Below are positions 13,752 through 64,000 of a stretch of DNA of 64,000 nucleotides, piece by piece. How positions within the stretch are numbered: the stretch's first letter is position 1; every line of letters starts with the position of its first letter. The stretch covers positions 71,796,001 to 71,860,000 of the forward strand of contig OX597814.1 of assembly GCA_951406725.2 (NCBI GenBank), in the 5' to 3' direction. The position numbers and the translations under genes are program-made. Under the pieces are notes generated by a model. The model did not search any database. It was given only the letters and a program-made list of their open reading frames with translations, and was not told the DNA's origin. The DNA is from Octopus vulgaris. Lineage: Eukaryota.

Positions 13752-15760
13752 CTAGAAAATGCAACATCTATATCAGTTTTTTTATTGAAAAATTGCTATC
13801 TTTTGAATAGACACAAGAAAATAGACACAAGAAAACTTTGCAAAGAAAGGTATGAAAATGGTATTTATTTTCTCTACAAACCAAAATTGATGCCACTAAG
13901 ATTTACCCATGATAAAACTAATAAAGTAAGATTAATTTCATGCTCCATCACTGAAATATGAATCCAACAACAGGAAAATCTACTTTTCACTGAGAAACTC
14001 GCCCTTCACAAGAATAGTTTAACAAGTCATGGTTACTTTTTTCTTAATATTTTACATTGCAATTTTGTTTTCCACATGATATGCTAGAGTAAGAATTTTC
14101 CAGCAAAATGATCTCAATGTCAATCATTTGACTAACATTAAAACCTTCAACTCAAAAGAGAAAGTCAAGTTATGTATCTTATCTAATGGAATAATGGAAA
14201 TCATCCAATTCTCTTTGACTTAGTTACATCAAATGAGAAAGTATGCTGCCCAAATACCATAAGGTTCCTTTTAGATAGAAAAACTGTAAACTCAGAAGAA
14301 TAAAGATTTGTAATCTCAGAATTCCAAATAAAAAAGAGTTGCTTCAATCAGATAAATAACTTTCTTCCACATGTAGTTTAGAATGAATCTTAACTGAAAG
14401 AGCTGTGCTGCTTCAAGAATGAGAGCAAGGAATTCCTACATCATAAACATGATCAGCTATAAATAACAGCCAAACTCATGTTAAATCTATTTATTTAAAA
14501 CACAAGAACACAATAAATAATGTGACCCTTGATACACTATTTCTCAATAAAAGATGATCTTGATGCTAAACATCAGTTGAAAGAAAAAACTTTGTGAATT
14601 TTCAAAAAGTACTTAGTCAAAATTATCTAGGTCTTGAAAACATACAGTTTTGACAATAAGATTACAGGGCTTTAAGAAACTTACTAAAGACAGTAAGTTT
14701 TTGCATCTAAGAGAAGAAAACAGGAAGATTGTGTTTTTACATATTCCTATATATAAACAGAATATTTGATCTCTCTATCAAGATATACATAATGGCTTTA
14801 GCTGAGAAAATATGCTAAAGATAGTTAAGGTTCCATAGGATGATATATAATTAGAGAAATTTAGGAAAAATGGAGAGTCAAATGACTTGTATAAGAGTGA
14901 GTGTTGTTGGCTGTGGTGGCAAGTATGTCATTGATATGTGTGCGTGTGTAAGAAATAATTAAGATTCAGTTGAATTAGGTCAGTCCAGTATTGTCCACAC
15001 AGCTCAAAATTAGGTGAATAGAAAGCAAATAAGTAACAAGGATGTCCAGGTATTAGAGCATTATGGCTGTTCCAAGCGGCTTCATTTAATCAATCAATGC
15101 AAGCATTACATCAGTTTGAAATAACCCACTTTCCTTGGATGCATAACACCATATAGGTTTTCAGCATACAGGATACTCCATTATAATCTTTTAGCAAATT
15201 TTTCATCAGAACTAGAGAATAAAAGAAATACATGCTTATTGCTACTATTGTAGCAGAATGAACTTAGGGAGAAAATACAGAAAGCCTACTATAATTTGGA
15301 GTGGCAGAAGAAAATAACAATGGGGGTCAAGATATGGTAAAATAGCTACATTCCTTTTTCTCCTTAACACAATTAAAAGATCCAATGCAGCTGGTATTCT
15401 ACAGCTACTTAGAATTAATATCACTGGGATTTGACAGTTAAGTTCTCCATGCTGGTGATAAATTAATTAATGTCAGATATTCTTGCCCTATTTTACTGTG
15501 ACTATAAATTCACCATGACTACATAAAAAAAACATGCCTCAGAAGATACCAGCAAGATAATGGTATATATACAGAAAGAGAAATGGCAGGGGTGACTTAA
15601 ACTATATTATGATTATCAATTAAAAGGGGGCTAAAATAGAAAACAAAGGAGGTCGGGCATTAAGGGTAAGGGAGAGGGGGAATAGTATATCTAAATTGAG
15701 CAGATAATATGATATATTTGCAGAGAGGTTGCAGTCATCTCAGCGAGCGAGGCAGGCTAC

Positions 15761-15806
15761 CCTGAACTGACGATGAGCAATACACTCAGAAACATATGTC
15801 TTCAGG
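15761..15806 (+). ncRNA. Type I hammerhead ribozyme, predicted cleavage after 15800
   Basis: CCTGAA-CTGACGA-TGAG caataca CTCA-GAAAC atat GTC-TTCAGG: complete core, stems I and II paired, short palindromic stem III. Confidence 0.9.
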
Positions 15807-16102
15807 TGCCTTGTCCTGGCTTGTGGAGGTGATTGCCTCCCCTTTGCAAATATAAGGACACAGAAAATGTGTCAAAGCCGAGAGACGTCGATGTTTCCTA
15901 GGGCTAAATGGCGGTGGTGTAATTCCCTTACGGGACTGTCACATTGAGTTGACAGTATACGACCACTATATCGCTTCACCACCGCTCTGAGACATTTAGA
16001 AATTCAATATTTCTAATTTCGGTGATCAGTAAATAAATTTTACTGATAATATGATATATTTGCAGAGAGGTTGCAGTCATCTCAGCGAGCAAGGCAGGCT
16101 AC

Positions 16103-16148
16103 CCTGAACTGACGATGAGCAATACACTCAGAAACATATGTCTTCAGG
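16103..16148 (+). ncRNA. Type I hammerhead ribozyme, predicted cleavage after 16142
   Basis: Identical to 15761-15806. Confidence 0.9.
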
Positions 16149-17027
16149 TGCCTTGTCCTGGCTTGCGGGGGTGATTGCCTCCCCTTTGCAAATATAAGGA
16201 CACAGAAAATGTGTCAAAGCCAACAGGAGATGTTGATATTTCCTAGGGCTAAATGGCGGTGGTGTAATTCCCTTACAGGACTGTCACATTGAGTTGACAG
16301 TATATGACCACTATATATATTATTATATTTTATATATTAAATAATAAAATTTAGAAAGGGATTTAAGGACCAAGTAAAGAGAAGCCGGACAGATAAACCA
16401 ATGTAAGCTCTAAAAAGTGGGGTACTTTTATATAAAATAGAAGCCTCATAATGCTTCATCCTAGCATACTGTTATGGTGATCTTGATAAAACTATTCAAC
16501 AATGAACCCATAATTAAATTCAGATTTCATCCAAGAAGGGCTACACATTTTCTATTGACTGAAAACCAAAGATTAAGAGCAAAAAATAAGACAATCAATT
16601 CTATGACAGATAAACTTATTTAAAAACCTTGGAAAAATGTAACTAAATAAAAAAATTTCCAACATTACGAAAAAATTTTAAAGGATATAAGAAGGTATAA
16701 AAATATCACATATATACACAAAATAAATCATATATATATGTATATATAAAAATATATATATTATAATTATAAAATGTAAATACAAATAAATAAATCATTT
16801 TACATAATAATATCAGGGTAATTAAGATTATAGAAATTTTTACTATCAGTGGCCTAGCATATAGAAAAGTTAGTCAATAGACTATATATTATTCATATAA
16901 AATACAGTGTACATTTAAACACATTAAGAGGTATCCCTTATGCTAGAAAGAATAGCTAAAGTTCAAACCACTAATTAGGGATAAATTCTGCAAGGGAATG
17001 AAAAATAAAAACATTTACCATCTATTT

Positions 17028-23566: not shown

Positions 23567-25870
23567 CCAGAGGGGAAGCAGATAAGAAAAAATTTGCCAA
23601 TGTTCTGTGCTGTGAGTACGAAAGACTTGAGGTATTTTGTGTTGCAAGACAGTGTGTGTGAGAGAGAGTCGTGATGTGGTGGGAGAAAAATGTGTCTGCA
23701 TGGATGATGGCTCACTTGTGTTTAATGAGGCTGTAAAGAGAGATACTTGTGAGGCCACTATGAAAGGTTGCTAAATGACGAGAATGAATGGAAGAAACAG
23801 AGACTGCCGAATGTTGACCCAACAAAAGGAACAGCTATCCGAATTGACAGTACTTTGGGAGATAAAGCAATTAAGGGTTTCAAGACAGGGAAAGCCCTCG
23901 GCCCATCAGGAATCACTGCAGAGATGCTTAAAATATCTGGTAGTGTCGGCTATAGTGTCATCACCTGTATAGTCAATCAGGTGATACATGAAGGAGTCAT
24001 GCCCAATGACTGGTGTAGCAACACCCATAGTCAACTGCTACAAAGGTAAAGGTGATGCATTAGATACAAATAATTACAGAGGTACCTAGTTGTTGGACAA
24101 GGCAATGAAAGTCACGGAGAGGGTCATAGCCCAACTACTTAAGGAGAGAGTCATTTTAGACAAGATGAAGTTTGGATTTGTGCCAGGGAAAAGCACCACT
24201 GATGCTATATGTCTGGTAAGACAGTTACAGGAGAAATACCTAGCCAAAGATAAACCTATGTACCTGGTTTTGTTGACATGCAGAAAGCCTTTGACAAGCT
24301 CCCCTGATCCCTTATCTAGTGATCAATACAGAAACCAGAGATAGATAAGTGGTTAGTGAGAGCTGTACAAGCTATGTACAGGGATGCTGTCAGTAAGGTG
24401 AGGGTTGGCAACGAGTACATTGAAGAAATCCGGGTAGGGGTAGAGGTCTACCAAGGATCAGTCTTCAGCTCCCTCTTATTGATCATAGTCCTCCAAGTAA
24501 TAACAGAGGAATTCAAGACAGATTGCCCCTGGGAGCTTTCCTTTGCTGATGACTTTGCTCTAATTGCTGAGTCACTATCAGAACTCATTGAGAAGTTTCT
24601 GGTGTGGAAACAAGGTCTAGAATCGAAGGGCCTTAGAGTCAATCTAGCAAAAACCATAAGTAGGAAGGCAGAGAAACCACAAAAACCTTCAGGTAGATGG
24701 CCCTGCTCAATCTGTAGGTAAGGCGTAGATAGAAACACCATAAGATGTACCCAGTGTAAACTATGGATACATAGGAGGCGCAGCAATATCAAGGCTAACT
24801 GGGAATGCTCAGGGGCAATCAACACTGAAAATGTGCAGAAAACATCATCTGTCACATTCCAGGGGAAAAAACTACAAGTGGTTAATAGCTTCCATTACCT
24901 TGGTGATCAAGTCAGTAGCAGTGGTGGATGCTCTAAGAGTGTAGCTGCTAGAATAAGAATAACTTGGGTAAAGTTCAGAGAGCTCCTACATCCACTGGTG
25001 ACAAAGGACCTTTCACTCACAGTAAAAGGTAGACTGTATGACACATGTATATGAATAGCCATGCTACATGGCAGTGAAACATGGGCCATGACTCCTGAGG
25101 ACATGCGTAAGCTTGCAAGAAATGAAGCCAGTATGCTCCGCTGGATGTGTAAAGTCAGTGTGCATACACAACAGAGTGTAAGTGCCCTGAGAGAAAAGTT
25201 GGACATAAGAAGCATCAGATGTGGTGTGCAAAAGAGACGACTGCACTGGTATGGTCATGTGTTGCGTATCGATGAGGACAGCTGTGTGACAAAGAGTCAC
25301 ACCCTAGCAGTAGAAGGATTTTGTGGAAGAGGTAGACCCAGAAAGACCTGGGATGAGGAAGTGAAGCACAACCTTCGAACACTGGGCTTCACCGAGGCAA
25401 TGACAAGTGACTTAGACCTTTGGAGATATGCTGTGTTTGAGAAGACCCGGGAAGCCAAGTGAGACCATAACCATGGCCTATGCCAGTGCAGCATAACCAG
25501 CCCATTTAAGAGTACTTTTCAATTATCGGGCAATAAACTGCACTTGCAAAGACTTATTGAGACAAGTGAAGTTGTTGTTGAGGCTGATGACAGTAGTGCC
25601 TGTTTGATAAGCATGCTGGTGGCACATAAAAAGCACCATTCAAGCATGGCTGATGCCAGCACTGCCTGACTGGCAATTGTGCCAATGGCACACAAAAAGC
25701 ACCCACTACACTCTCATAGTAGTTGGTGTTAGGAAGGGCATGCTGCGGTAGAAATGTTGCTGGATCAGTTTGGAGCCTGGTGCAGCCTTCTGGCTTGCCA
25801 GCCCTCAGTCCAACAGTTCAACCCATACCAGCATGGAAAGTGGACGTTAAACGATGATGACAATGATGAT
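23567..25870 (+). mobile_element. 5'-truncated RTE LINE, frameshifted
   Basis: FGFVPGKSTTDAI, YQGSVFSSLL, FADDFALIAES, RGRPRKTWDEEVKHNL; (GAT)n tail. Confidence 0.92.
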
Positions 25871-26050: not shown

Positions 26051-26450
26051 TCTTTATATATAAAAGTAAAGTTGTGTGTCTGTCTCCTACGATTTAGATT
26101 CCTAACTACTCCCACATTTTGCGGTGCAGTTTAACCAAAACCGGGTATCTTATAGTCGTGATTCATATCGAGCCCTTCTGGGTATTAGCGCACGTCTACG
26201 ATGAGTCTACGATTTAAAAAAAAATTTACCATAATTTTACCGTATTTTTAATGCATTTTCGCTCGGTTTATATAAGGGAAGTAACTCTCTAAAAATGTAT
26301 TATTAAATCTCAGAACGTAAAAAGCTACAGTAACACCCCGCCCCCTTTGTGGTTAGCCATATTGAGATGGTTATTATACTTTACATCTCTAAAAATGTTT
26401 ATATAGTTATTTCCCTTACAAACCCTAGCAACGCCGGGTGATACTGCTAG
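26051..26450 (+). mobile_element. Non-autonomous Helitron
   Basis: a|TCTTTATATATAAAA...ccctagcaacgccgggtgatactgCTAG|t: 5' TC, subterminal GC-rich hairpin, 3' CTAG, A|T target. Confidence 0.75.
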
Positions 26451-27000: not shown

Positions 27001-27847
27001 CATCATCATCATCATCATCATCATTTAGCGTCCGTTTTCCATGCTAGCATGGGTTGGACGGTTTAACTGGGGTCTGTGAAGCCGGAAGGCTTCATCAGGC
27101 CCAGTCAGATTTGGCAGTGTTTCTACGGCTGGATGCCCTTCCTAACGCCAACCACTCCGCGAGTGTAGTGGGTGTTTTTTACGTGCCACCTGCACAGGTG
27201 CCAGACAGAGCTGGCAAACGGCCACGAAGGGACGGTGCTTTTACGTGTCACCTGCACGGGGGCCAGCCGAGGCTGGCAACGAACACGAACGGATGGTGCT
27301 TTTATGTGCCACGGACACGGGGCCAGACAGAGCTGGCAAACGGCCACGAACGGATGGTGCTTTTACGTGTCGCCGGCACGGGGGCCAGCCGAGGCTGGCA
27401 ACGGACACGAACGGACAGTGCTTTTATGTGCCACCGACACGGGGCCAGACGGAGCTGGCAAACGGCCACGAACGGACGGTGCTTTTACGTGTCACCGGCA
27501 CGGGGACAGGCGAGGCTGGCAAACGGCCACGAACGGACGGTGCTTTTACGTGTCACCGGCACGGGGCCAGGCGAGGCTGGCAACGAACACGAACGGATGG
27601 TGCTTTTACGTGCCACCGACACGGGGGCCAGACAGAGCTGGCAAACGGCCACGAGCGAATGGTGCTTTTACGTATCACCGACACGGGTGCCAGACGAGGC
27701 TGACAGTGGACACGAACAGATGGGTCACTTAACCCCTGCTTTCTGATATATGATTTGATTTTGATTGTTCTCACTGGTCTTGCCGGGTCTTCTGACGCAC
27801 AGCATACTTCCATAGGTCTCGGTCTCTGGTCATTTCCTTGGTGAGAC
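27001..27847 (-). mobile_element. RTE 3' fragment with an expanded array of about 9 x 61-nt hairpin units
   Basis: ORF end MTRDRDLWKYAVRQKTR, units recurring at about 61-nt spacing over 27170-27720, (CAT)n on plus strand. Confidence 0.88.
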
Positions 27848-28778: not shown

Positions 28779-29038
28779 AGAAAACAAACAAGCTTTAAAT
28801 CTCTGATTGAGATCTGTGTAGTAACAGTACTGGATAGTAAAGTTTATTTGCCCACACAATGTGGCAGTGCTCACTAGGAGTATATTACTACTTTTTAATC
28901 CCAGGAAACCAACTTTTCCAGTCTGTTTATCGACATACGATCAGTGTCCGAGACATACTGTTGGCAAATAAACTTTACTATTCAGTACTGTTACTACATA
29001 AATCTCCATCAGAGATTTAAAACTAGTTTTTCTCCTTA
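28774..29038. repeat. Short foldback/MITE-like element with about 75-bp imperfect inverted arms
   Basis: aaggagaaaa...tttaaatctctgat...gtagtaacagtactggatagtaaagtttatttgcc is the reverse complement of 28962-29038. Confidence 0.7.
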
Positions 29039-32716: not shown

Positions 32717-33146
32717 TCATCATCATCGTTTCATGACCGTTCTCCATGCTAGCATGAGTTGGAGGGTTCAACCAGGGATCTGGGAAGCCAGAAGGCTGCA
32801 CCCAGGCTCCAGTCTTATCTGGCAATGTTTCTACAGCTGGATGCCCTTCACTCCGTGAGTGTAGTGGGTGCTTTTTACGTGCCACCTGCACAGGTGCCAG
32901 GTGAGGCTGGCAACAGTCATGGTCAGATTGGTGCATTTTATGTGCCACCGGCACGGAAGGCAGTCGAGGCGGCACTGGCATCGGCCACGATTCGGATGGT
33001 GCTTTTTACATGCCACCGGCACGGAAGCCAGTCGAGGCGGCACTGGCATCGGCCACGATTTGGATAATGCTTTTTACGTACCACCAGTCCAGGGGTCCTG
33101 GCATCTGCCGGGTGCCAGTCATAGGATTGGTTCAATTTCAATTTCG

Positions 33147-44205: not shown

Positions 44206-47200
44206 CATCGTCATCATCATCATTTAATGTTCACATTCCATTCTAGCATGGATTGGACAATTTGACTGAGGTCTGGCAAACCAGAAGGCTGCACCAAGTT
44301 CCAATCTCGATCTGGCAGAGTTTCTACAGCTGGATACCCTTCCTAACGCCAACCACTCTGAGAGTGTAGTGGGTGCTTTTACATGCCACCGGCACGAGGA
44401 CCAGTGAGGCAGTACTGGCAACAGCCATGCTCAAATGGTGATTTTTACATGCCACCTGCACAGGAGCCAGTCCAGTGGCACTGGCAACGACTTCGCTCGA
44501 ATGTTTTTTCACATACCACCAGCACAAGTGCCAGTAAGGCAATGATGGTAACAATCACACTCGAATGGTATGTTTTTTTTACGTGCCAGTAAGGTGACAC
44601 TGGTAACAATCACACACGAATGGTGCTTTTTATGTACTACCGGAATGGAAGCCAGTTAGTAGCTCTGGCAACGATCACACTCGGATGGTGCTCTTAGTGC
44701 TCCACTAGCAGAGATACCAGTCATCGAATTTGATTTCGATTTCACTTCCCTCAACAGCTAGAGTGTGGCACTTTTTCACACAGCTGTCCTCATCCATTCT
44801 CACCACATGACCATACCAGCACAGTCGTCTCTCTTGCACACCACATTTGATGCTTCTTAGGTCCAACTTTTTTCTCAAGGTACTAATACTCTGTTGAGTA
44901 TGCACACTGACATTACACATCCATCGGATCATACTGGCTTCATTCCTTGCGAGCTTACGCATGCCCTCAGCAGTCACAGCCCATATTTCACTGCCATGTA
45001 GCATGGCTGTTCTTACACATGATTCATACAGTTTATCATTTACTCTGAGAGAGAGGCCCTTTATCATCAGCAGAGGTAAGAGCTCTCTGAACTTTGACAG
45101 GCTATTCTTATTCTAGCAGCTACACTTTCAGCGCACCCTTCCTCCGCTACTGACTTGATCACCGAGGTAATGGAAGCTATCAACTACTTCTAGTTTTTCT
45201 CCCTGGAATGTGGCAGAGGTTGTTCTCTACACATTTTCAGTGTTTATCTTTGATTCTAATCCTTGTTTCCACACCTGAAACTTTTCCGCGAGTTCTGATA
45301 GTGACTCAGCAATTAGAGCAAGGTTGTCAGCACAGAGGAGCTCCCAGGGGCATCAGGTCTTGAATTCCTCTGTTATTTTCTGGAGGACTATGATAAATAG
45401 GAGGGGGTTAAAGACTGATCCTTGGTGGACACCTAATTCTACCCGGAATTCTTCATTGTACTCGTTGCCAACCCTCGCCTTACTGACAGCATCCCTGTAC
45501 ATAGCTTGTACAGCTCTCACTAACCACTTATCTATCCCTAGTTTCTGTATTGATCACCAGATAAGGGATCAGGGGAGCTTGTCAAAGGCTTTCTGCATGT
45601 CAACAAAACCAGGTACATAGGTTTATCTTTGGCTAGGTATTTCTCCTGTAACTGTCTTACCAGACATATAGCATCAGTGGTGCTTTTCCCTGGCACAAAT
45701 CCAAACTTCATCTCGTCTAAAATTACTCTCTCCTTAAGTAGTTGGGCTATGACCCTCTCCATGACTTTCATTACCTGGTCCAACAACTTGATACCTCTGT
45801 AATTATTTGTATCTAATGCATCACCTTTACCTTTGTAACAGTTGACTATGGGTGTTGCTACACCAGTCATTGGGCATGACTCCTTCATGTATCACCTGAT
45901 TGACTATACAGGTGATGACACTATAGACGACACTACCAGATATTTTAAGCGTCTCTGCGGTGATTCCTGATGGGCCAAGTGCTTTCCCTGCCTTGAAACC
46001 CTTAATTGCTTTATCTCCCAAAGTACTGTCAATTCGGATAGCTGTTCCTTTTGTTGGGTCAACATTCGGCAGTCTCTGTTTCTCCCATTCATTCTCGTCA
46101 TTTAGCAACCTTTCATAGTGGCCTCACAAGTATCTCTCTTTACAGCCTCATTAAACACAAGTGAGCCATCATCCATGCAGACACATTTCTCTCCTACCAC
46201 ATCACGACTCTCTCACACTGTCTTGCAACACAAAATACCTCAAGTCTTTCATCCTCACAGCGCAGAACATTGGCAAATTTTTTCTTATCTGCTTCCCCTG
46301 TGGCTAAATACACCTGCCTCCTAGCTTCCCTTCTGGCAGTCTGATACACTTCCCTGCTACCACCGTTCTTCCAGTCCTTCCAAGCCTGTTTCTTTTCTCT
46401 AATAGCCTTGTTACAACATTGTTCCACCACCATGTTATTTTGGGTCTTGAAGGGACTTTGCACCATCCACAGATCTGGTCAGTGGCTCTCAGCAGGTTGT
46501 CCCTTAGAAACCTCCAGTTGTCTTCTACCCCATGTGAAGCTATATCCCCTTCTATTTCGTCAAAGGCTTCGAGTAATATGTCTCTAAATCTCTGCCCATT
46601 CGTAGGATCTTTAAGCTTCCAGACCCTTCTACTCCATGTTGGTCGTCTTCTGGTTGTCCTCTTAGTCCTGATCCTAAAGTCACTAACTACCAGTCTATGT
46701 TGTGGGGTACACTCTTCGCCTGGGAAGGTTTTGGCATGTATAAGCAGCCATCTTTCCCTTTTTCTGGCAAGGATGTAGTCAATTTGGCTAGTATGTCGGC
46801 CCGATCGGTAGGTGACTAGGTGGCTGGTAGGTTTCCTGAAGTTAGTGTTGCAAACCATAAGATCATTCGCATGGCAGAACTCCAGAAGCCTCGTTCCCTC
46901 CTCGTTGCGGGAACCATAACTGTAGCCCCCATGTATGCCATGGAAGTCCCCAGCATGTTGTTCAACATGCCTATTGAAGTCACCAGCCACAAAGAGAAGG
47001 CCCCTGTTGTTTGTTGATGAGGTAGTCTGCAGTAGGGCGTCACAGAATCGGTCTTTCTGTCCATCGGGTAGCCCTGGCTGAGGGGCATGGGCCGATATAA
47101 TGGTTGCTAATCCATGATGAAGCACTAATCTTATCTTAAATATTCTGTTGCATACTCTGACTACCTCAATTACCTTATCTACCCATTTTTCAGCGAGAAG

Positions 47201-47700
47201 TATACCCACGCCCCCGACCCCGTCAGTGTTCCCAGCCCAGAAAATCTTGTACCTGTGTTCTTTGCCTGTGAGGAACCTAGTAGAGCCTCCTCTCCACCTC
47301 ACTTCTTGAATGTAACACATATCAACACATCTCTGTTCAAGCAACTCAACAATCTCGCCAGACTTATCTTTCAGTGTGCCAACCCTGAGGGTGTGGGAGG
47401 TGTGGGCCCTAGGGACCTTAGGACAGGGGACAGTAGCTTCATGTACCTGAAAAGAAAACTTGCATTTGGCAGGATTCATAGACAAACACTAGACTTAAGT
47501 TCAAACCGCGTACACTACACTATCATATTTTGCACTGTATGATCATTACCTTATATAGCAGTGGGTGGGGGTGGCGTAAGACTTTTGAAGTGTTCATGGG
47601 AGACAACTAAGGATGACAAAATTGGGACTTCCGGTAAAGGTAGAGGGCAGGTGCACCGCGAAAACTAGCAGCCATGAAGGGGCGCATCTCATCTCTTGGA
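44206..47700 (-). mobile_element. Apparently full-length, frameshifted RTE LINE
   Basis: 393-aa AP-endonuclease ORF 46304-47485 (IQEVRWRG, VAGDFN, SQIDYIL, QHRLVV), RT pieces, UTR repeats, (CAT)n; 5' boundary approximate. Confidence 0.92.
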
Positions 47701-48216: not shown

Positions 48217-48617
48217 GGCGCAGGAGTGGTGTGCGGTAAGTAGCTAGCTTACCAACCACATGGTTCCGGGTTCATTCCCACTGCATGGCACCTTGGACAA
48301 GTGTTTTCTACTATAGTCTTGGGCCAACCAAGCCTTGTGAGTGGATTTGATAGACGGAAACTGAAATAAGCCCATTGTATATAGGTATATGTATGTGCAT
48401 GAATATGTTTGTGTATCTGTGTTTGTCCCCCCAACATCGCTTGACAACCGATGCTGGTGTGTTTACATACTCGTAACTTAGTGGTGAGGCAAAAGAGACC
48501 AATAGAATAAGTACTAGGCTTCCAAAGAATAAGTCCTGGGATCGATTTGCTCGACTAAAGGCGCTGCTCCAGCATGGCCGCAGTCAAATGACTGAAACAA
48601 GTAAAAGAGTAAAAGAG
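48217..48617 (+). mobile_element. Full-length tRNA-derived SINE (octopus-type)
   Basis: ggcgcaggagtgg...GGTTCATTCCC head; gtgagtggatttgatagacggaaactgaa body; gactgaaacaagtaaaagagtaaaagag tail; inverted tail fragment at 48020-48110. Confidence 0.78.
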
Positions 48618-48627
48618 TATATATATA

Positions 48628-49180
48628 GTGACGCATATTTGCCATTTCAATATGGCTACCCCTAAGGGTGGATGCTACTGTTGTTTTTAGCCCCAGGAGG
48701 ACACACTCTTCCAGCTGGCCATAGACACACTTTCTGTGCCCTGTCAGTATTTGCAAAGGGAAGTCATCCTTCCCGTCTTCAACTTATGATACACACGGAC
48801 TTGAGTTTCGAGGTATTGACCTCTCGTCAGCATGTGACAATCATAGTTGTCGCTGAGAATTAGATTTCCTTCACAAATACTTATACTTTTTCCAGCGTCC
48901 ACTGTCGCTGATATTGAAAAAGTGAAATCAAACAATGATAAATATCAAAGTGAGTTATATACAGTAGCGGTAACACATCGTGACGCATATTTGCCATTTC
49001 AATATGGCTACCCCTAAGGGTGGATGCCACTGTAGTTTTTAGCCCCAGGAGGACACACTCCTCCAGCTGGCCATAGACACACTTTCTGTGCCCTGTCAGT
49101 ATTTGCAAAGGGAAGTCATCCTTCCCGTCTTCAACTTATGATACACACGGACTCGAGTTTCGAGGTATTGACCTCTCGTC
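48628..49180 (-). mobile_element. Retrozyme-like tandem repeat, about 1.6 copies of a 352-nt unit
   Basis: 48628 recurs at 48980; hammerhead in each unit (the upstream one truncated); homologous to 15703-16316. Confidence 0.82.
48792..48836 (-). ncRNA. Type I hammerhead ribozyme, predicted cleavage between 48798 and 48797
   Basis: CACATG-CTGACGA-GAGG tcaata CCTC-GAAAC tcaa GTC-CGTGTG. Confidence 0.87.
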
Positions 49181-49209
49181 CTCCTGGGGCTAAAAACTAC
49201 AGTAGCATC

Positions 49210-50330
49210 TCAAAGTTTCTATGTCGATTTCTGTTGCAAGTCTGATCTCATCCTCTATGAGTTGAGCTGGGTAGTGTCTGTCAATTAGGGTGTTTTTGAG
49301 TTCTTGTAGTCTAAAGTTCCTGGTATTTTGTTCTGACACTATTGTGCATATCCTTCTTGCAAGGTTGAAATGGATGTTTGTTTTAGTGTGTCTTGGGTGG
49401 CATGAATCAAAAAGTAGGTATTGTTTGGCATCTGTGGCTTTGTAAAAAATGTCTGTTTCTATTTTAAAGTTAATTTTTTAAATTAGTATATCTAAGAATG
49501 GAAGCTCCTTTTGGTTGTATTCCATTGTGAACTGTATATTTGGATTGATGCTGTTCAATAGGTTTTTGAATTTTAGGAGTTTATCTGTGTTTTCATTCCA
49601 GAGTATAAAACAATCGTCCAGGAATCGTTTCCAATTCTCTTTTATGTATTGAGAGAGAGGGTTTCCAAAGATTGATAAAGATTCCTGGTAAACAACTATT
49701 TCCAGGTAGCCCATTGTTAGGTTTGCAATGACTGGTGCTGCCCTTGTACCCATAGCAATTCCGGATTTTTGACGGTAAAATGTATTGTCAAACATGAAGT
49801 GGTTATTATGCAGGATGAATTCAACCGATTTAGTAATGAATTCTTCACTGATCCTTTTTGGCTGCCACCATAACTACGTGGGGTCCACGGTACTATCACT
49901 CAGACGAAGATGCACACTGCATCGACAACAGATAGCATTCCCAGAATACAGAATGATACCCTTTAGTGAGCATATTGAGAAATGCGCAAAGTAACTACTA
50001 CCACTATTTTTAATCTTTCCATTTTATCAATGTGCTATTGGAACACCAACACAAATTAGACTAAACAAGGAAACATTCTTCATTGAAAAATATAAGCCCA
50101 AACTTAACCACTCTAACATTCTTATACAGAGAAACTCACAGCTTTAAGTAAAAGAGGCAAGAAATATAAAGCGATTATCTTCCTTACACCGGAAGAAATC
50201 CCTTCTTACCTCCAATTACCTGGAACTCTTCTTTACACTTCATAACGAAGTCGTAACACAATGTTTTGAGAAATTTGAAAAGTTAACACGAAACCGGTAA
50301 TTTCTTCAAGAACTATGTCACTGTATGAAA
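49210..50330. mobile_element. Penelope-like element with internal inversion: RT on minus (49210-49860), GIY-YIG and 3' end on plus (49861-50330)
   Basis: FYRQKSGIAMGTRAAPVIANL, WKRFLDDCF, LPFLDILI (minus); YVGSTVLSLRRRCTLH, RLNKETFFIEKYKPKLN (plus); decayed minimal HHR at 50268-50306. Confidence 0.85.
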
Positions 50331-50544
50331 AAATTTTATAACATTCTTCTGAGATAATGACTCAAATATATTTTTTTACCCTTTAAAACAAGCCTTCTGC
50401 ATATACATATATATATACATATACATATACATATATATATACATATATATATACATATATATATACATATACATATACATATATATATACATATATATAT
50501 ATATATACACATATATAAATACATATATATATATATACATATAA

Positions 50545-50585
<41 letters not shown>

Positions 50586-50620
50586 TAAATACATATATAT
50601 ATATATACATATAAATATAC

Positions 50621-50653
<33 letters not shown>

Positions 50654-50746
50654 TTATATACACATATATAAATACATATATATATACATATATATAAATA
50701 CATATATATATATATATACATATAAATATACATATATATATACACA

Positions 50747-50780
<34 letters not shown>

Positions 50781-51046
50781 ATAAATACATATATATATAC
50801 ATATATATATACATACATACATATATATATATATGCATACATATATATATATACATATTTATATACATATATATATACTTATATACATATATATATATAC
50901 ATATTTATATACATATATATATACTTATATACATATATATATATATACATACATATATATATACATATATATATACATACATATATATATACATATATAT
51001 ATACATACATATATATATACATATATATATATATACATATATATAC

Positions 51047-51221
<175 letters not shown>

Positions 51222-51249
51222 CATATATATATACATATATATATACATA

Positions 51250-51316
<67 letters not shown>

Positions 51317-51321
51317 TATAC

Positions 51322-51374
<53 letters not shown>

Positions 51375-51415
51375 TATACATATATATATACATATATATA
51401 TATATACATATATAC

Positions 51416-51530
<115 letters not shown>

Positions 51531-51535
51531 TATAC

Positions 51536-51650
<115 letters not shown>

Positions 51651-51687
51651 TATACACATACACACATATATATACACACATACACAC

Positions 51688-51734
<47 letters not shown>

Positions 51735-51748
51735 TATATACATATATA

Positions 51749-51791
<43 letters not shown>

Positions 51792-52198
51792 TATATACAT
51801 ATATATACATATACACATATATATATATACATATATATACATATATATATATATACACATATATACACATATATATATATATACACATATATATATATAC
51901 ATATATATACATACATATATATACATATATATATATATACACATATATATATACATATATATATATATACACATATATATATACATATATATATATATAC
52001 ATATATATATACATATATATATATATACACATATATATATATACATACATATATATATACACATATATATATATATACACATATATATATATACATACAT
52101 ATATATATATATATATATACACATATATATATACATACATATATATATATATACACATATATATATATATACATATATATACATATATATATAAATAT

Positions 52199-53242
52199 TG
52201 TTACAAAGGTGGGGAGCATCCGAAAACCGTTACGGAAATCCTCACACACATGCCCGATTCGATCAGCGAATAAGCTACGGAAACTCGGAGAGAGAGGAGA
52301 GGAGAGACGCAACAACAGCAAGGCAACAGAGACACAGAGAGGCAACCGGAGAGAGACACCAAAAGAGGCAAAACGGCAACAACTGGCAACACTGGCTTAT
52401 ATTCAACAACTAGTTTATATGACAATCAATGGTTACAACATCAAAGCATTTAAGGCAAACAACAAATCAATACATCATACGGGTATACCACAGATCAAAA
52501 GCATTTAACAACATACATGTAACAATATATCAGTCCGGAGACACAACAAGTCATATACAGTATTCCAAAGGTACACGTTACGTCACAGTCCAATCAGAAC
52601 ACTATAATCGACACATTATACAATGTTCGTATCACAACAATTCACGTTACAGTTCAAAGTTCATTATCGTCTACATCAGAGTCCTTCTGTTTCTCTCTTC
52701 TTTTCTCTTTCTTTTCTTTTACATCGTAACACGTATCAATACAATTAAATACCTTAGTTCCCAATTGAAGCGCCAGTGTCCCATTCTGCACTCATCTCTC
52801 AATACTGCTAATTCCTCTGTACATATTCCCTTCTGTGCTGCCAAGCTTTCTCGCATCCCAACCTGCTTGCTCCTAAGATTCCACCTCCTTGCCGACTTCC
52901 AGAATCCGACTGTGTTCTCTGACGACCGGCTCCCAACTGCCCAAAACCTCACTTCCTTGTCCTCACTTCCACTCCCTCTAATCTCCCTCTGTACTGCTCA
53001 TACCCTCTCTAACTGCCCTGCTCCCTTACTGTCAATACACTCTCCATCTGTTCTTAGATTCCCTTAATCTGTCTTCCTCTTTCACATTCCCACTGACCAT
53101 CTTCTCAGCCGCACGAGGTGACAGGTCATTCCAAAACCCATTAGTCCTCCATTAGACAAAAGACTGTCACATTTTCACCAGACATGATAGTGCCATTATT
53201 CCTATGTGGGTCAGAAACACTGCACTAGTTAAACCCGTAACA
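52199..53242. mobile_element. Probable solo LTR (about 1044 bp)
   Basis: TGTTAC...GTAACA termini, ATAT on both sides, no coding similarity seen. Confidence 0.65.
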
Positions 53243-53277
<35 letters not shown>

Positions 53278-53324
53278 CATATATATATACATAAATATAT
53301 ACATATATATATACATATATATAT

Positions 53325-53357
<33 letters not shown>

Positions 53358-53614
53358 TGTATATACATATATATATACACATATATATATACACATATAT
53401 ATATACATATATATATATACATATATATATACAAATATATATATATACATATATATATACATATATACATATATATATATATATACATATATACAAATAT
53501 ATATACATATATACATATATACAAATATATATACATATATATATACATATATATATACATATATACAAATATATATACATATATATATACATATATATAT
53601 ACATATATATATAC

Positions 53615-53683
<69 letters not shown>

Positions 53684-53862
53684 TATATACATATATATAT
53701 ATACATATATACATATATATATATACATATATACATATATATATATACATATATACATATATATATACATATATATACATATATATATACATATATATAC
53801 ATATATATATATACATATATATATACATGTATATATACATATATATATACATGTATATATAC

Positions 53863-53895
<33 letters not shown>

Positions 53896-54703
53896 CATAT
53901 ATATACATATATATATATACATATATATATATATACATATATATATATACATATATATATACACATATATATACATATATATATATACATATATATATAC
54001 ATATATATACGTATACATATATATATATATATACATATATATACATACATATATATACATATATATATATACGTATACATATATATATATATACGTATAC
54101 ATATATATATATACATATATATACATATATATATATACATATATATTCATATATATACATAAACATATATATACATATATATATATATACATATATATAT
54201 ACATATACATATATACATATATATATACATATACATATATATATATACATATATATATATACATATATATACATATATACATATATATATACATTTACAT
54301 ATACATATATATATACATATATATATACATTTACATATATATATATATATATATATACATATATATATACATATATATATACATATACATATATATACAT
54401 ATATATATATACATATATATATACATATACATATATATATATATACATATATATATACATATAATATATACATATACATATATATATACATATATATATA
54501 TACATATATAAACATATATATATACACATATATATATATATACATATATATATATAAAGATATGTATATATACATATATATATACATATATATATACATA
54601 TATATATACATATATATATATATACATATATATATACATATATATATACATATATATATACATATATATATACATATATATATATACATATATATATATA
54701 TGC

Positions 54704-54846
<143 letters not shown>

Positions 54847-54884
54847 CATATATATATACATATACATATATATATACATATATA

Positions 54885-55145
54885 ACTGCTCTCAGTTATG
54901 GTCACCGTCCAGTGTCAAGTTGATCACAGAGCTCGAGGCGATCCAACGTAGCTACATGAAGAAGATAGCCTCTACGCAGAATGTAAGCTACTGGGAAAGA
55001 CTCAAGAGATTAAAACTATATTTCCTGGAGCGTAGGCGGTAAAGATATACCATAATATACATCTGGAAGATCCTGGAGGGACGTGTCCTAAACTTTGGCA
55101 TCGAGAGTTACGCAAATGCCAGAACTGGGCGCCACTGCGCTGCAA
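54885..55145 (+). mobile_element. CR1-group LINE fragment, same family as 58647-60382
   Basis: [33 protein letters not shown]. Confidence 0.85.
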
Positions 55146-55156
55146 TTGTTATATAC

Positions 55157-55187
<31 letters not shown>

Positions 55188-55208
55188 TGTATACATAAAT
55201 ATATACAC

Positions 55209-55243
<35 letters not shown>

Positions 55244-55398
55244 CATGTATATATATACACATATATATATATACATATATATATATACATATATATATAC
55301 ATATATATATATACATATATATATATACATATATATATATACATTTATATATATACATATATATATATACATATATATATACATATATATATACACAC

Positions 55399-55440
<42 letters not shown>

Positions 55441-55464
55441 ATATATATACATATATATATACAC

Positions 55465-55495
<31 letters not shown>

Positions 55496-55510
55496 CATAT
55501 ATATATACAT

Positions 55511-55559
<49 letters not shown>

Positions 55560-55560
55560 C

Positions 55561-55591
<31 letters not shown>

Positions 55592-55930
55592 CATATACAT
55601 ATATACATATATATATATATACATATATATATATACATATACACATATATATATATATACATATATATATATACATATATACATATATATATATATACAT
55701 ATATATATACATATACATATATATATATATATACATATATATATACATATACATATATATATATACATATACATATATATATACATATACATATATATAT
55801 ATATACATATATATATATACATATATATATATATACATATACATATATACATATACATATATACATATACATATATATACATATACATATATACATATAT
55901 ACATATATACATATAAATATATACATATAC

Positions 55931-55975
<45 letters not shown>

Positions 55976-56010
55976 TATATACACATATATATACACATAT
56001 ATATATACAC

Positions 56011-56141
<131 letters not shown>

Positions 56142-56170
56142 CATATATATATATACATATATATATATAC

Positions 56171-56275
<105 letters not shown>

Positions 56276-56292
56276 CATATATATATATATAC

Positions 56293-56398
<106 letters not shown>

Positions 56399-57585: not shown

Positions 57586-57733
<148 letters not shown>

Positions 57734-57792
57734 CATATATATATATATAAATATATATACATACATATATATATATAAATATATATACATAC

Positions 57793-57990
<198 letters not shown>

Positions 57991-58034
57991 CATACATATA
58001 TATATATACATACATATATATATATACATACATA

Positions 58035-58138
<104 letters not shown>

Positions 58139-58161
58139 CATACATATATATATATACATAC

Positions 58162-58244
<83 letters not shown>

Positions 58245-58247
58245 CAT

Positions 58248-58383
58248 TTGGCAGCTGTAGAAACATTGCCAAATTTAGACTGGAGCCTGGTGCAGCCTTC
58301 TGGCTTCCCAGAACCCGGTCGAACCGTCCAACCCATGCTAGCATGGAGAACGGACGTTAAACGATGATGATGATGATGATGAT
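58248..58383 (+). mobile_element. RTE 3' tail in (TA)n
   Basis: cagctgtagaaacattgcc...cggacgttaaacgatgatgat. Confidence 0.85.
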
Positions 58384-58385
58384 AC

Positions 58386-58432
<47 letters not shown>

Positions 58433-58439
58433 CATATAC

Positions 58440-58627
<188 letters not shown>

Positions 58628-58646
58628 TACATAGATATATATATAT

Positions 58647-60382: not shown

Positions 60383-60410
60383 AAAAATATATATATATAT
60401 ATACATATAT

Positions 60411-60515
<105 letters not shown>

Positions 60516-60574
60516 CATATATATATATATACATATATATATATACATATATATATATACATACATATATATAC

Positions 60575-60647
<73 letters not shown>

Positions 60648-60830
60648 CATATATATATATACATATATATATATACATATATATATATACATACATATAT
60701 ATACATATATATATATACATATATATATATACATATATATACATATATATATACATATATACATATACATATATACATATATATATACACATATATACAT
60801 ATATATATACACATATATATATATATACAC

Positions 60831-60877
<47 letters not shown>

Positions 60878-60944
60878 TACATATACATATATACATATAC
60901 ATATATACATATATATATATACATATATACATATACATATATAC

Positions 60945-61019
<75 letters not shown>

Positions 61020-61037
61020 TATATACATATATATATG

Positions 61038-61151
<114 letters not shown>

Positions 61152-61198
61152 TATATACATATATATATACACATATATATATACATATATATATACAC

Positions 61199-61472
<274 letters not shown>

Positions 61473-61492
61473 TATATATATATATATATATA

Positions 61493-61545
<53 letters not shown>

Positions 61546-61548
<3 letters not shown>

Positions 61549-64000
61549 TCATCATCATCATCATCATCATCGTTTAACGTCCGCTTTCCGCGCTAGCACG
61601 GGTTGGACGGTTTGACCGGGTCTGGGAAGCCAGGGGCCGCTCCAGGCTCCAGTCTGAATCTGCCCTTCCTAACGCCAACCACTCCGTGAGTGGATTGGGT
61701 GCTTTTTACGTGCCACCTGCACAGGGGCCGGAGGGTCCGGCATCGTCACGATCGGTTCGAGCATTTTAACGTGTCAGCGGCACGGGGGCAACGAGGTCCG
61801 GGGTACTTTGGGAATCGGGGTACTTTGGGGATCCGGGGTACTTAGAATGGGTAGGGGGTATGTGGAATTGCTGCAGAAAGCAGCCCGGGTCTTTGTAGTC
61901 ACAGCATATCTCCAGAGATCTCGGTCCTTCGCCATTGCCTCAGTGAGGCCCAATGCTCTGAAGTCATGCTTGACCACCTCATCCCATGTCTTCCTGGGTC
62001 TACCTCTCCCCCTGATACCTTCAACTGTTTGGGAGTGGCACTTCTTCACACATCTCTCTTCATCCATCCGCAGCACATGACCATACCATCGGAAGCGTCG
62101 CTCTTGCACACCACATCTGATGCTTCTTATATCCAGCATTTCTCTCAGGATACTTACACTCTGTTTTGCGTGCACACTGACACTACACATCCAGCGGATC
62201 ATGCTAGCTTCATTTCTTTCAAGTCTACGCATGTCTTCTGCAGTCACAGCCCATGTTTCATTACCGTGAAGCATGGCAGTTCGCACACATGCATCATACA
62301 ATCTACCTTTTGCTCTGAGGGAGAGACCTTTTGTTGCCAGTAGGGGTAGGAGCTTTCTGAACTTTGCCCAGGATATTCGTATTCTAGTGGTGATACTCTC
62401 TGTGCATCCACCTCCGCTACTAACTTGGTCTCCCAGGTAGCGGAAACTATCAACTACTTCTAGTTTCTCTCCCTGGAGTGTGATGGAATCTGTTTTCTGA
62501 GTGTCTGTTGTGTCTATTGTCCCTGTGCATCTGCCGCACATGAAAGCTATCTTATCTGTTCATTTCCTTTAATGTTGCTGCACCTCTTATGTGTCCATAA
62601 CTTACATTGGGTGCATCTTATGGAGTTTCTACCTGTACCTTTCCTACAGGTTGAGCAGGGCCACCTACCCGAGGGGATGTGTGCTGAGTACCTCTTGCTG
62701 CTTACTAATACTTTGGTCTTTGCTACATTTATTCTAAGGCCCTTTGATTCCAACCCTTGCTTCCACACCCGAAATTTCTCTTCTAGTTCCGGTAGTGATT
62801 CTGCTATGAGAGCTAGGTCATCGGCATAGAGGAGCTCCCAGGGGCATCCCGTTTTGAATTCCTCTGTTATTGCCTGAAGGACTATGATGAATAAAAGGGG
62901 ACTGAGGGCTGAGCCCTGGTGCACACCTACTTCTACCTGGAATTCTTCACTATATTCGTTGCCAATCCTAACCTTGCTGACAGCCTCTCTGTATAGAGCC
63001 TGTACAGCCCTTATTAGCCATTCTTCAATCTCCAGTTTCCGCATCGACCACCAGATAAGGGAACGGGGAACCCTGTCAAAGGCTTTCTCCAAGTCTACAA
63101 AAGCTATGTAGAGGGGTTTATCTTTAGCTAGGTACTTCTCCTGCAGTTGTCGGACCAGGAATATAGCATCAGTGGTGCTTCTACCTGGTACAAAACCGAA
63201 CTGCATTTCATTTAAACAAATTCTCTCCCTAATGAGATTGGTTATGACCTTCTCTGAGACCTTCATCACCTGGTCCAACAGTTTGATACCTCTGTAGTTA
63301 TTTCTATCTAGAGCATCACCCTTACCCTTGTAGCAGTTGACTATGGTGCTGCTGCACCAGTCATTGGGTATGGCTCCATTATGAACTACCTGGTTTACAA
63401 TGCGGGTGACTATGGCATGGCCCACATAGCCAGCTGTTTTAAGCATCTCAGCAGTGATTCCTGATAGGCCAGGGGCTTTGCCTGGTTTCATATCCTTAAT
63501 TGCCTTATCTACAAGGGAGCTGTCTATTCGGGTAGCTGGTCCCTCTACTGGGTCAACATTTGGCAGGCTCTCCTCCTCCCATTCATTCTCCTCATTCAGC
63601 AGTCTTTCATAATGGCTTCTCCAAGCCTCTTTCTTTTCACTAGTAGTAAAAGCAAGTGCCCCATCATCCATGCGGACACATTTCTCTCCTATAACATCGC
63701 TATTTTCTCTGACACACTGTCTGGCAATCCGAAATACTTCAGCTCTTTGATCCTCGCGACGCTGGACATTGGCAAACTTCTTCTTTTCTGCTACATCTTT
63801 GGCAATGTATACCTGCCGCCCAGCCTCCCTTTTGGCTATCTGGTACAGTTCCCTGCTGCCCCCATCCTTCCAGGCTTTCCAGGCCCGTCTCTTTTCACAG
63901 ATGGCTTTATCTACTGCACTATTCCACCACCACGTAATTCTAGGTCTGGAAGGGACTTTGCACCATCCACAGACTTGGTCTGTGGCACTCAACAAGCTGT
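61546..64000 (-). mobile_element. Young RTE LINE running off the window end; RT open except one frameshift near 62560
   Basis: ORFs of 482 aa and 255 aa: VDLEKAFDRVP, GVHQGSALSPLLF, YADD, C4HC3 finger, RGRGRPRKTW; (CAT)n on plus strand. Confidence 0.93.

Follow-up and report, generated by a model that had tools for sequence, protein, structure and literature searches.

A non-LTR retrozyme insertion in Octopus vulgaris with compensated predicted RNA helices and likely mobilization by Penelope-type enzymes

The closest described relatives of the repeat analyzed here are the metazoan non-LTR retrozymes of PMC7229834. The octopus families resemble them in having non-coding tandem units of 170–400 nt with one type I hammerhead each and thousands of copies; unit sizes in the cited sections of that source are 350–390 nt in mussel and 331 or 353 nt in axolotl. 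The likeness extends to a self-paired predicted circle, to co-existing Penelope-like elements and to the presence of two families in one genome (PMC7229834). The canonical form of the type I hammerhead is defined in PMC4209133, where palindromic helix III is linked to dimeric activity. For Penelope-like elements, the "tail" equals the distance between two internal reverse transcriptase (RT) start sites in vitro (PMC11167929) and is often present at one end only (PMC8557442). Newt satellite 2, a hammerhead repeat, has an internal snRNA-type Pol II promoter (Coats et al. 1994, as cited in PMC2220036). On which enzyme moves animal retrozymes, and what that enzyme recognises, the case made in the cited papers consists of co-occurrence and pLTR likeness.

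We analyzed a 64,000-nt stretch of the Octopus vulgaris genome (GCA_951406725.2, contig OX597814.1, positions 71,796,001 to 71,860,000 of the forward strand), referred to below as the window. It contains a 1.6-unit insertion of a retrozyme family, B, on the minus strand, and an insertion of a second family, A, on the plus strand:
48829..49180, minus: full retrozyme unit of family B, 352 nt (unit position p lies at 49181 - p)
48628..48828, minus: partial second B unit (B1-201), stopping at the family B short 3' end
49178..49209, plus: inverted B piece (B127-158), 32 nt, at the 5' junction
48618..48627, no strand: (TA)5 target on the B 3' side, inside the tail of a common repeat
15692..16316, plus: family A insertion composed of A266-342, A1-342 and A1-203; it has two hammerheads, both complete
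The partial copy at 48628–48828 is identical to the full unit at 48829–49180 at 197 of 201 positions (98%). The common repeat at 48400–48617, which holds the (TA)5 target in its tail, is presumably SINE-like. Older B-lineage subfamily fragments lie elsewhere in the window (26299–26386 and 28795–29019), as do related 61–68-nt minisatellite arrays (27177–27723, 32867–33085, 44377–44535) and long open frames resembling decayed LINE ORF2 pieces (46307–47488 and 61777–63998, minus; 24323–25459, plus), which we take to be RTE-like.

A preliminary description of this DNA had proposed that the 352-nt unit aligns in order with a 342-nt unit. Global alignment of unit B with unit A of the window (342 nt, 15769–16110) scored 419, against 189±26 for 1000 dinucleotide shuffles (z 9.0, maximum 279), and 337 against 149±24 (z 7.8, shuffle maximum 219) once the hammerhead was removed; local alignment gave z 9.7, and z 8.9 without the hammerhead. 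The proposed alignment thus lies above all 1000 shuffles, also without the ribozyme, and the motifs and arm pairs described earlier are all present in the window sequence in the order given. The 342-nt unit is indeed present in the window, but the family A consensus measures 353 nt, the window unit carrying an 11-nt deletion. Likewise, A and B are related as described, but as two among at least 17 related subfamilies rather than as the only two members.

Copies were searched for across the genome (2.8 Gb, 227 contigs). Family B returned 2,424 candidates (178 matches in 40 scored loci, full units 92–98% identical) and family A 2,523 (88–95%). A third abundant family, G, has a period of about 365 nt, 1,744 candidates, a CCGAUGA core variant and two fixed ends (L030:535-888). 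One motif common to the superfamily gave 3,620 + 51 = 3,671 exact matches, with 0 for a reversed control; the superfamily comprises at least 3,671 copies of this motif and at least 17 subfamily consensuses. The 17 consensuses, built from fetched loci, form two lineages, with identity of 65–93% inside the B lineage and about 50% between the two main lineages; this set excludes singletons (36 B-like) and two chimeric clusters, and B31 and B33 were left out of the fold tests as short. Subfamilies differ by many 1–2-nt indels. Near-identical head-to-tail B arrays of up to about 6 units occur on many contigs, at scattered loci and with random 5' breakpoints, and most copies have fewer than two units. 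At L026:974-1360, degraded B pieces are interleaved with unrelated sequence beside a young B array, and L282 holds another diverged hammerhead repeat, with a U3-A8 core, known here only as a LINE target.

With respect to coding, the longest stop-to-stop frames across the unit reach 84–89 aa, and the predicted circular self-paired fold gave z -4.6 (B) and -8.0 (A) against 100 shuffles. A and B belong to one non-LTR retrozyme superfamily, a known class in which these families are new members. Metagenomes scanned with the common motif yielded 74 loci, none with a BLAST match past the motif or with an upstream hammerhead, and on these grounds we took them as chance and rejected them as relatives. 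The cited parts of the octopus repeat annotation PMC13282606 make no mention of a ribozyme or retrozyme, and a literature search (outside bioRxiv supplements, Repbase and Dfam) found no paper that treats these families, retrozyme tail marks or LINEs with retrozymes as their target. The B repeat may already be in a repeat catalogue (Repbase/Dfam) under another label.

Two hammerhead motifs lie at the B locus:
48792..48836, minus: the sole complete type I hammerhead (Rfam RF00163, below gathering score)
49150..49180, minus: incomplete upstream hammerhead, without C3-U4 and the helix I 5' arm (model positions 9-39 only)
The complete copy matched Rfam Hammerhead_1 at 26.6 bits (E 5e-4; the gathering score is 34), and at gathering level Rfam gave zero matches in the entire window. 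It has the canonical type I form, with a 6-bp helix I, a CUGACGA core (48824–48830), a 4-bp helix II with a CAAUA loop and a short, 2-bp helix III, palindromic save for one change; from hammerhead rules, the cut is predicted after the GUC at 48798. The palindromic helix III of the preliminary description is that of the upstream copy (ACTCGAGT); in the only complete hammerhead, helix III is ACTCAAGT, and this one change breaks the palindrome. The upstream hammerhead was damaged by 5' truncation and by the 32-nt inversion (49178–49209), cut inside the core, and the window copy by itself cannot excise a unit-length monomer. Among subfamilies the core pair covaries (C3-G8, U3-G8, U3-A8), helix III is palindromic in most, with differing sequence, and the loop 1 and loop 2 motifs are conserved in the full-length hammerhead. 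A CTGACGA at 52919 was rejected as a hammerhead, its context not being that of one.

Outside the ribozyme, two regions of the B unit stand out by their predicted structure:
49041..49092, minus: two conserved hairpins after the rod (B89-105, B109-140; RNAalifold; helices 3-5, 96-97% of cells paired)
48961..49033, minus: multi-hairpin domain with a closing 8-bp helix, B148-155/B213-220 (helices 6-7)
The suggestion that structure is conserved beyond the hammerhead was borne out by covarying pairs in numerous subfamilies. From 24 genomic copies, RNAalifold predicted 38 pairs, 18 of them changed on both sides. Seven named helices, scored on 24 copies picked by length among 246, hold 39 non-hammerhead pairs, taken from one B copy and selected after the alignment was seen, in which 95% of cells are paired; two-sided changes occur in 18 of these 39, against 9.9±1.9 in shuffled alignments (0/500) and 3–8 in slid controls. 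Helices 6 and 7 of the multi-hairpin domain show two-sided change in 5/8 and 2/5 pairs. A count of "further pair types" in the seven helices was not significant (92/500).

A selection-free test started from every pair with p >0.6 in circular folds of single sequences; for the null, partners were redrawn from bases of the same class. In the B lineage, double changes numbered 16 against 8.5 expected (p 0.005–0.012) and 11 against 4.7–5.7 (p 0.009–0.022), and were not significant with B12 as reference (8 against 5.1–5.9, p 0.12–0.23). The A lineage gave 13 against 5.2–5.8 and 16 against 6.6–7.1 (p 0.003–0.006), and all 17 consensuses together gave 40 against 25–25.5 and 46 against 26–29 (p 0.001–0.002). 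Six of the seven runs of these fold-based tests, which are our own and not R-scape, thus reached p 0.001–0.02. Broken pair states were about as frequent as kept ones (49 and 43 in B), mostly in the long rod, which slips. The order of the seven helices is unchanged across lineages only 50% identical. C21 of the upstream hairpin is retained even where unpaired (6/23 cells), which points to a sequence constraint.

The insertions end in and just after the multi-hairpin domain. The two fixed ends fall at B200-204 or B247-252 in family B and at A200-204 or A248-252 in family A, about 45 nt apart, and at two sites 49 nt apart in G; in most cases (TA)n adjoins them. The window copy uses the short end, not the long-end site:
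48930..48934, minus: family B long 3'-end site (B247-251), unused by the window copy (end mapping)
By hand count among 150 of 178 matches listed, the 40 B loci divide into 23 direct ones (18 short, 4 long, 1 other) and 17 mirrored ones (16 short plus long, 1 unclear). Nineteen mirrored A loci, also counted by hand, include 14 with a short and a long end, 5 with an arm ending elsewhere and 0 with two equal ends. One short and one long end per mirrored insertion is the Penelope "tail" mark. Direct B loci have TA on the 5' side in 13/13 cases (at least 6 nt in 11), and the window copy has no TA there. B insertions further show a (TA)n target, 5' truncation and inverted arms, with short fold-back inversions common at junctions. 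The short end, B201-204, lies inside the covarying domain at 48961–49033, from which we infer that the domain recruits or positions the RT; it is likely an RT-initiation domain. The RT-recruitment signal proposed in the preliminary description gains indirect support from the two fixed 3' ends, which fall in and just after the domain in A, B and G. Together, these sequence features suggest that the retrozyme superfamily is likely copied by Penelope-type retrotransposon enzymes.

A Penelope-like element directly adjoins the B insertion:
49208..49861, minus: young Penelope-like element, RT-region fragment (97% to other copies; 1.5% private changes)
49860..50399, plus: same Penelope-like family, 3' end (GIY-YIG region, 3' repeat); a 6-kb TA-rich microsatellite comes next
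The RT fragment and B overlap by 2 nt at their junction, which has no TA run. A minimal hammerhead-like motif, with U3-A8 in its core and helix III palindromic, lies in the 3' repeat (50250–50320, plus), and the protein has a CX4CxxC motif ahead of GIY-YIG, an arrangement assigned to Neptune and Nematis (PMC8557442). The family has at least 2,628 candidate copies, targets (TA)n, and follows the same short-plus-long rule with two ends 38 nt apart (L067, L072); one copy, L065, has an open stretch of 640 residues. BLAST of 11 copies gave no match to A or B. Private changes are similar on the two sides, at 1.4% and 2.5% in B and 1.5% and 3.0% in the Penelope arms. Very long TA-rich microsatellites, up to 6 kb, occupy 50401–56395, 57586–58646 and 60387–61546, and the first of them adjoins the Penelope arm, whose end it may have eroded.

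We next considered how the unit might be transcribed. One conserved helix contains a candidate promoter element:
48893..48912, minus: conserved hairpin (helix 1) whose 5' arm begins ATCAG(T/C)G; candidate Pol II snRNA-type proximal element
In this genome, ATCAGT (in one case ATCAAT) lies 57–61 nt upstream in 27/28 U1/U2/U5 genes (15 measured, the others by eye), the single exception having a LINE tail at +1, and a motif of this type was found at that position in 0/14 U6 matches. The retrozyme ATCAG(T/C) is present in 9/9 consensuses reaching the site, 81–89 nt before C3, a position that predicts a start near B327 (48854). A promoter matrix scan did not single out the site, with scores mostly 1.5–9.5 against 10–20 in snRNA genes and the best score within the shuffled range in 10/11 sequences, and the snRNA-type element is thus a candidate. 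An internal Pol II snRNA-type promoter is a moderate candidate, based on a 6–7-nt motif and its spacing. The Pol III promoter suggested in the preliminary description was not supported, since the conserved upstream motif fits Pol II U1/U2/U5 genes and not U6. A Pol III-driven SINE was likewise rejected: no tRNA, 5S or 7SL head or U6-type sequence matched in Rfam at E<=5, U6 upstream regions lack the common motif, and a T5 run inside the unit is crossed by RNA-labelled contigs. RT initiation and service as an snRNA-type Pol II promoter, not a Pol III one, are the likeliest roles of the outer structure.

Unit B was covered in 4/4 runs examined as contigs, whose RNA label is guessed. In 3/4 of these guessed-RNA runs, B had a depth of 10–140 and the adjacent, equally repeated Penelope piece 0–2; in the remaining one, X1, the Penelope piece was covered as deeply as B. 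Two runs, again with a guessed label, contained a 383-nt contig that returns to its own start once a single unit is complete. The depths suggest B-specific expression; the closed contig fits a circle, tandem read-through RNA or DNA equally.

Retrozymes also serve as targets for another element. In two A loci the retrozyme is interrupted at an identical base by a 1.62-kb element, accompanied by a 20-nt duplication; the element contains a zinc-knuckle-like ORF (Pfam zf-CCHC, E 0.015, under the cut-off). This ORF1-only LINE-like element (L249:86-1708, L250, L254-L304) has 149 candidates in the genome and sits 15–35 nt upstream of the hammerhead core, with 10–20-nt target duplications and sometimes in tandem. 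A search by its 5' part found 20/21 loci touching a retrozyme, the 21st showing short remnants, and a search by its 3' end found a retrozyme directly downstream in 24/30 (the first 30 of 75 matches); at least 3 loci are common to both searches. Host retrozymes come from both lineages, and the junctions fall into two classes, about 55–57 nt (2 loci measured) and 66–67 nt (4 loci) after the candidate promoter motif. At L260, insert and retrozyme lie inside a mirrored short-plus-long insertion, which makes it likely that retrozymes can take such cargo along. The search for an autonomous partner of the element yielded none. An RT-bearing LINE at L310 was rejected for this role, as 24/25 copies have their own 3' end and no adjoining retrozyme. 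Protein searches with the ORF1 product and the L310 fragment gave nothing at E<=0.001, and "Tx1" therefore denotes no more than a likeness. Similar polyadenylation tails are carried by other LINE-like 3' ends, which fall exactly on +1 of a U2 gene and on the retrozyme site used by the ORF1-only element (L342; L078, L093, L102, L233).

The explanation that we consider quite probable is that the locus is a 1.6-unit non-LTR retrozyme insertion with compensated helices, likely pasted by a Penelope-type RT/endonuclease and probably in one event with the adjoining Penelope fragments. Under this model, Pol II would transcribe tandem copies from the internal snRNA-type element, and two hammerheads, probably paired via palindromic helix III, would excise a roughly 353-nt monomer that is then closed into a circle. 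A Penelope protein would bind the conserved hairpin domain and cut both (TA)n strands, and cDNA would begin internally, at B201-204 and at B247-251. Head-to-tail units would arise as the RT runs round the circle, and the mirrored form by priming from both strands. At the window locus, one strand would have started on retrozyme RNA and switched to Penelope RNA, the other having started on Penelope RNA.

That the B and Penelope pieces form one mirrored insertion whose arms, one retrozyme and one Penelope, were made in a single event appears rather probable from the TA-free junction, the similar private divergence and the two-end rule common to B and this Penelope family, but both families target (TA)n, which makes a nested insertion possible. 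It is less probable, though far from negligible, that Penelope-type enzymes other than those of the neighbouring family mobilise the retrozyme, and that B inserted afterwards at the border of a Penelope fragment already in place, removing its TA. The neighbouring family has no sequence likeness to A or B, other Penelope-like families exist (tblastn matches 27–60% identical), and contact with a retrozyme was found in 1/148 loci searched, namely the window itself, where the large number of TA-targeting copies makes chance contact plausible. The end of the Penelope arm is also non-standard: it stops 28 nt before the short end, at the 6-kb microsatellite, where the two-end rule calls for the long end. 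A later landing is, however, at odds with a junction free of the TA seen at 13/13 direct B loci and with the matching ages of the two sides, and the three resolved inverted arms of the Penelope family begin at its 3' end, not mid-ORF.

Two further alternatives, each of which we regard as improbable to a similar degree, concern the RNA itself. Template switching or near-palindrome repair might keep the arms complementary, or the fold might be merely a stable circle with no specific signals, so that the outer helices would not be selected for RNA function. The frequent short fold-backs at junctions and the slipping rod with its many broken pairs would fit this, but the same seven helices in the same order in lineages so diverged, the double changes inside each lineage, the 3' ends falling in the same domain in three families and the retention of unpaired C21 argue for selection. 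The unit might instead be a linear non-autonomous Penelope derivative, a mini-pLTR or SINE-like, with tandems from read-through RNA or local duplication and no circle. The prevalence of copies below two units agrees with this, as do the in vitro activity of a Penelope that needed no hammerhead cleavage (PMC11167929) and the cleavage of only 1/9 Xenopus dimers (Li et al., bioRxiv 10.64898/2026.07.22.740005). A linear form accounts poorly for a hammerhead that is full-length, conserves its loop 1 and loop 2 motifs and covaries at the 3-8 pair, or for multi-unit arrays that are nearly identical, lie at scattered loci and break at random 5' positions, and circles have been shown in coral, mussel and axolotl relatives (PMC7229834).

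More tentatively, the retrozyme reading can be extended to three layers: a Neptune-type Penelope that would copy a circular retrozyme by RNA shape, not sequence, from two fixed priming sites, one per DNA strand, with a template switch caught here; an own snRNA-type Pol II promoter; and an ORF1-only LINE-like insertion at the start region in hosts about 50% identical. The octopus family offers a candidate enzyme (L065), two predicted start sites and natural compensatory variants for each helix, all of which fit the published in vitro Penelope assay directly. If the enzyme reads shape, this would provide a route to insert circular-RNA cargo at (TA)n, and the candidate promoter, if true, would extend the newt satellite 2 case to molluscs, although in octopus it depends on a 6–7-nt motif match and spacing only.

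Compared with the retrozymes of PMC7229834, whose cited sections mention no octopus or other cephalopod and report no covariation outside the ribozyme, fixed ends, target site or promoter, the octopus families present all four, the promoter as a candidate; circles were shown there, whereas circles and cleavage are predictions for the octopus families. The ORF1-only element is like Tx1L, Keno and Tx1-Mar (Kojima 2015, PMC4494074) in its site preference, multicopy-repeat target and target duplication, and unlike these Tx1-clade LINEs in having ORF1 only and a retrozyme as target, its clade being assigned by resemblance (PMC4494074). With EN+ Penelope-like elements, as described in PMC11167929 and PMC8557442, the retrozymes share two internal RT starts, AT-rich or (TA)n targets, 5' truncation, partial tandems, inverted arms and a tail at one end; they differ in lacking an ORF, in a hammerhead that is full instead of minimal and in a tail of 45–60 rather than 30–40 nt. 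The same proposal of Penelope origin and mobilisation has been made by Li, Clavereau and Pollet (2026, bioRxiv 10.64898/2026.07.22.740005), in the cited parts on the basis of co-occurrence and pLTR similarity, mainly in vertebrates. Octopus A and B have no pLTR similarity to the one Penelope family compared, and here the proposal draws instead on the tail, the TA target and the composite insertion.
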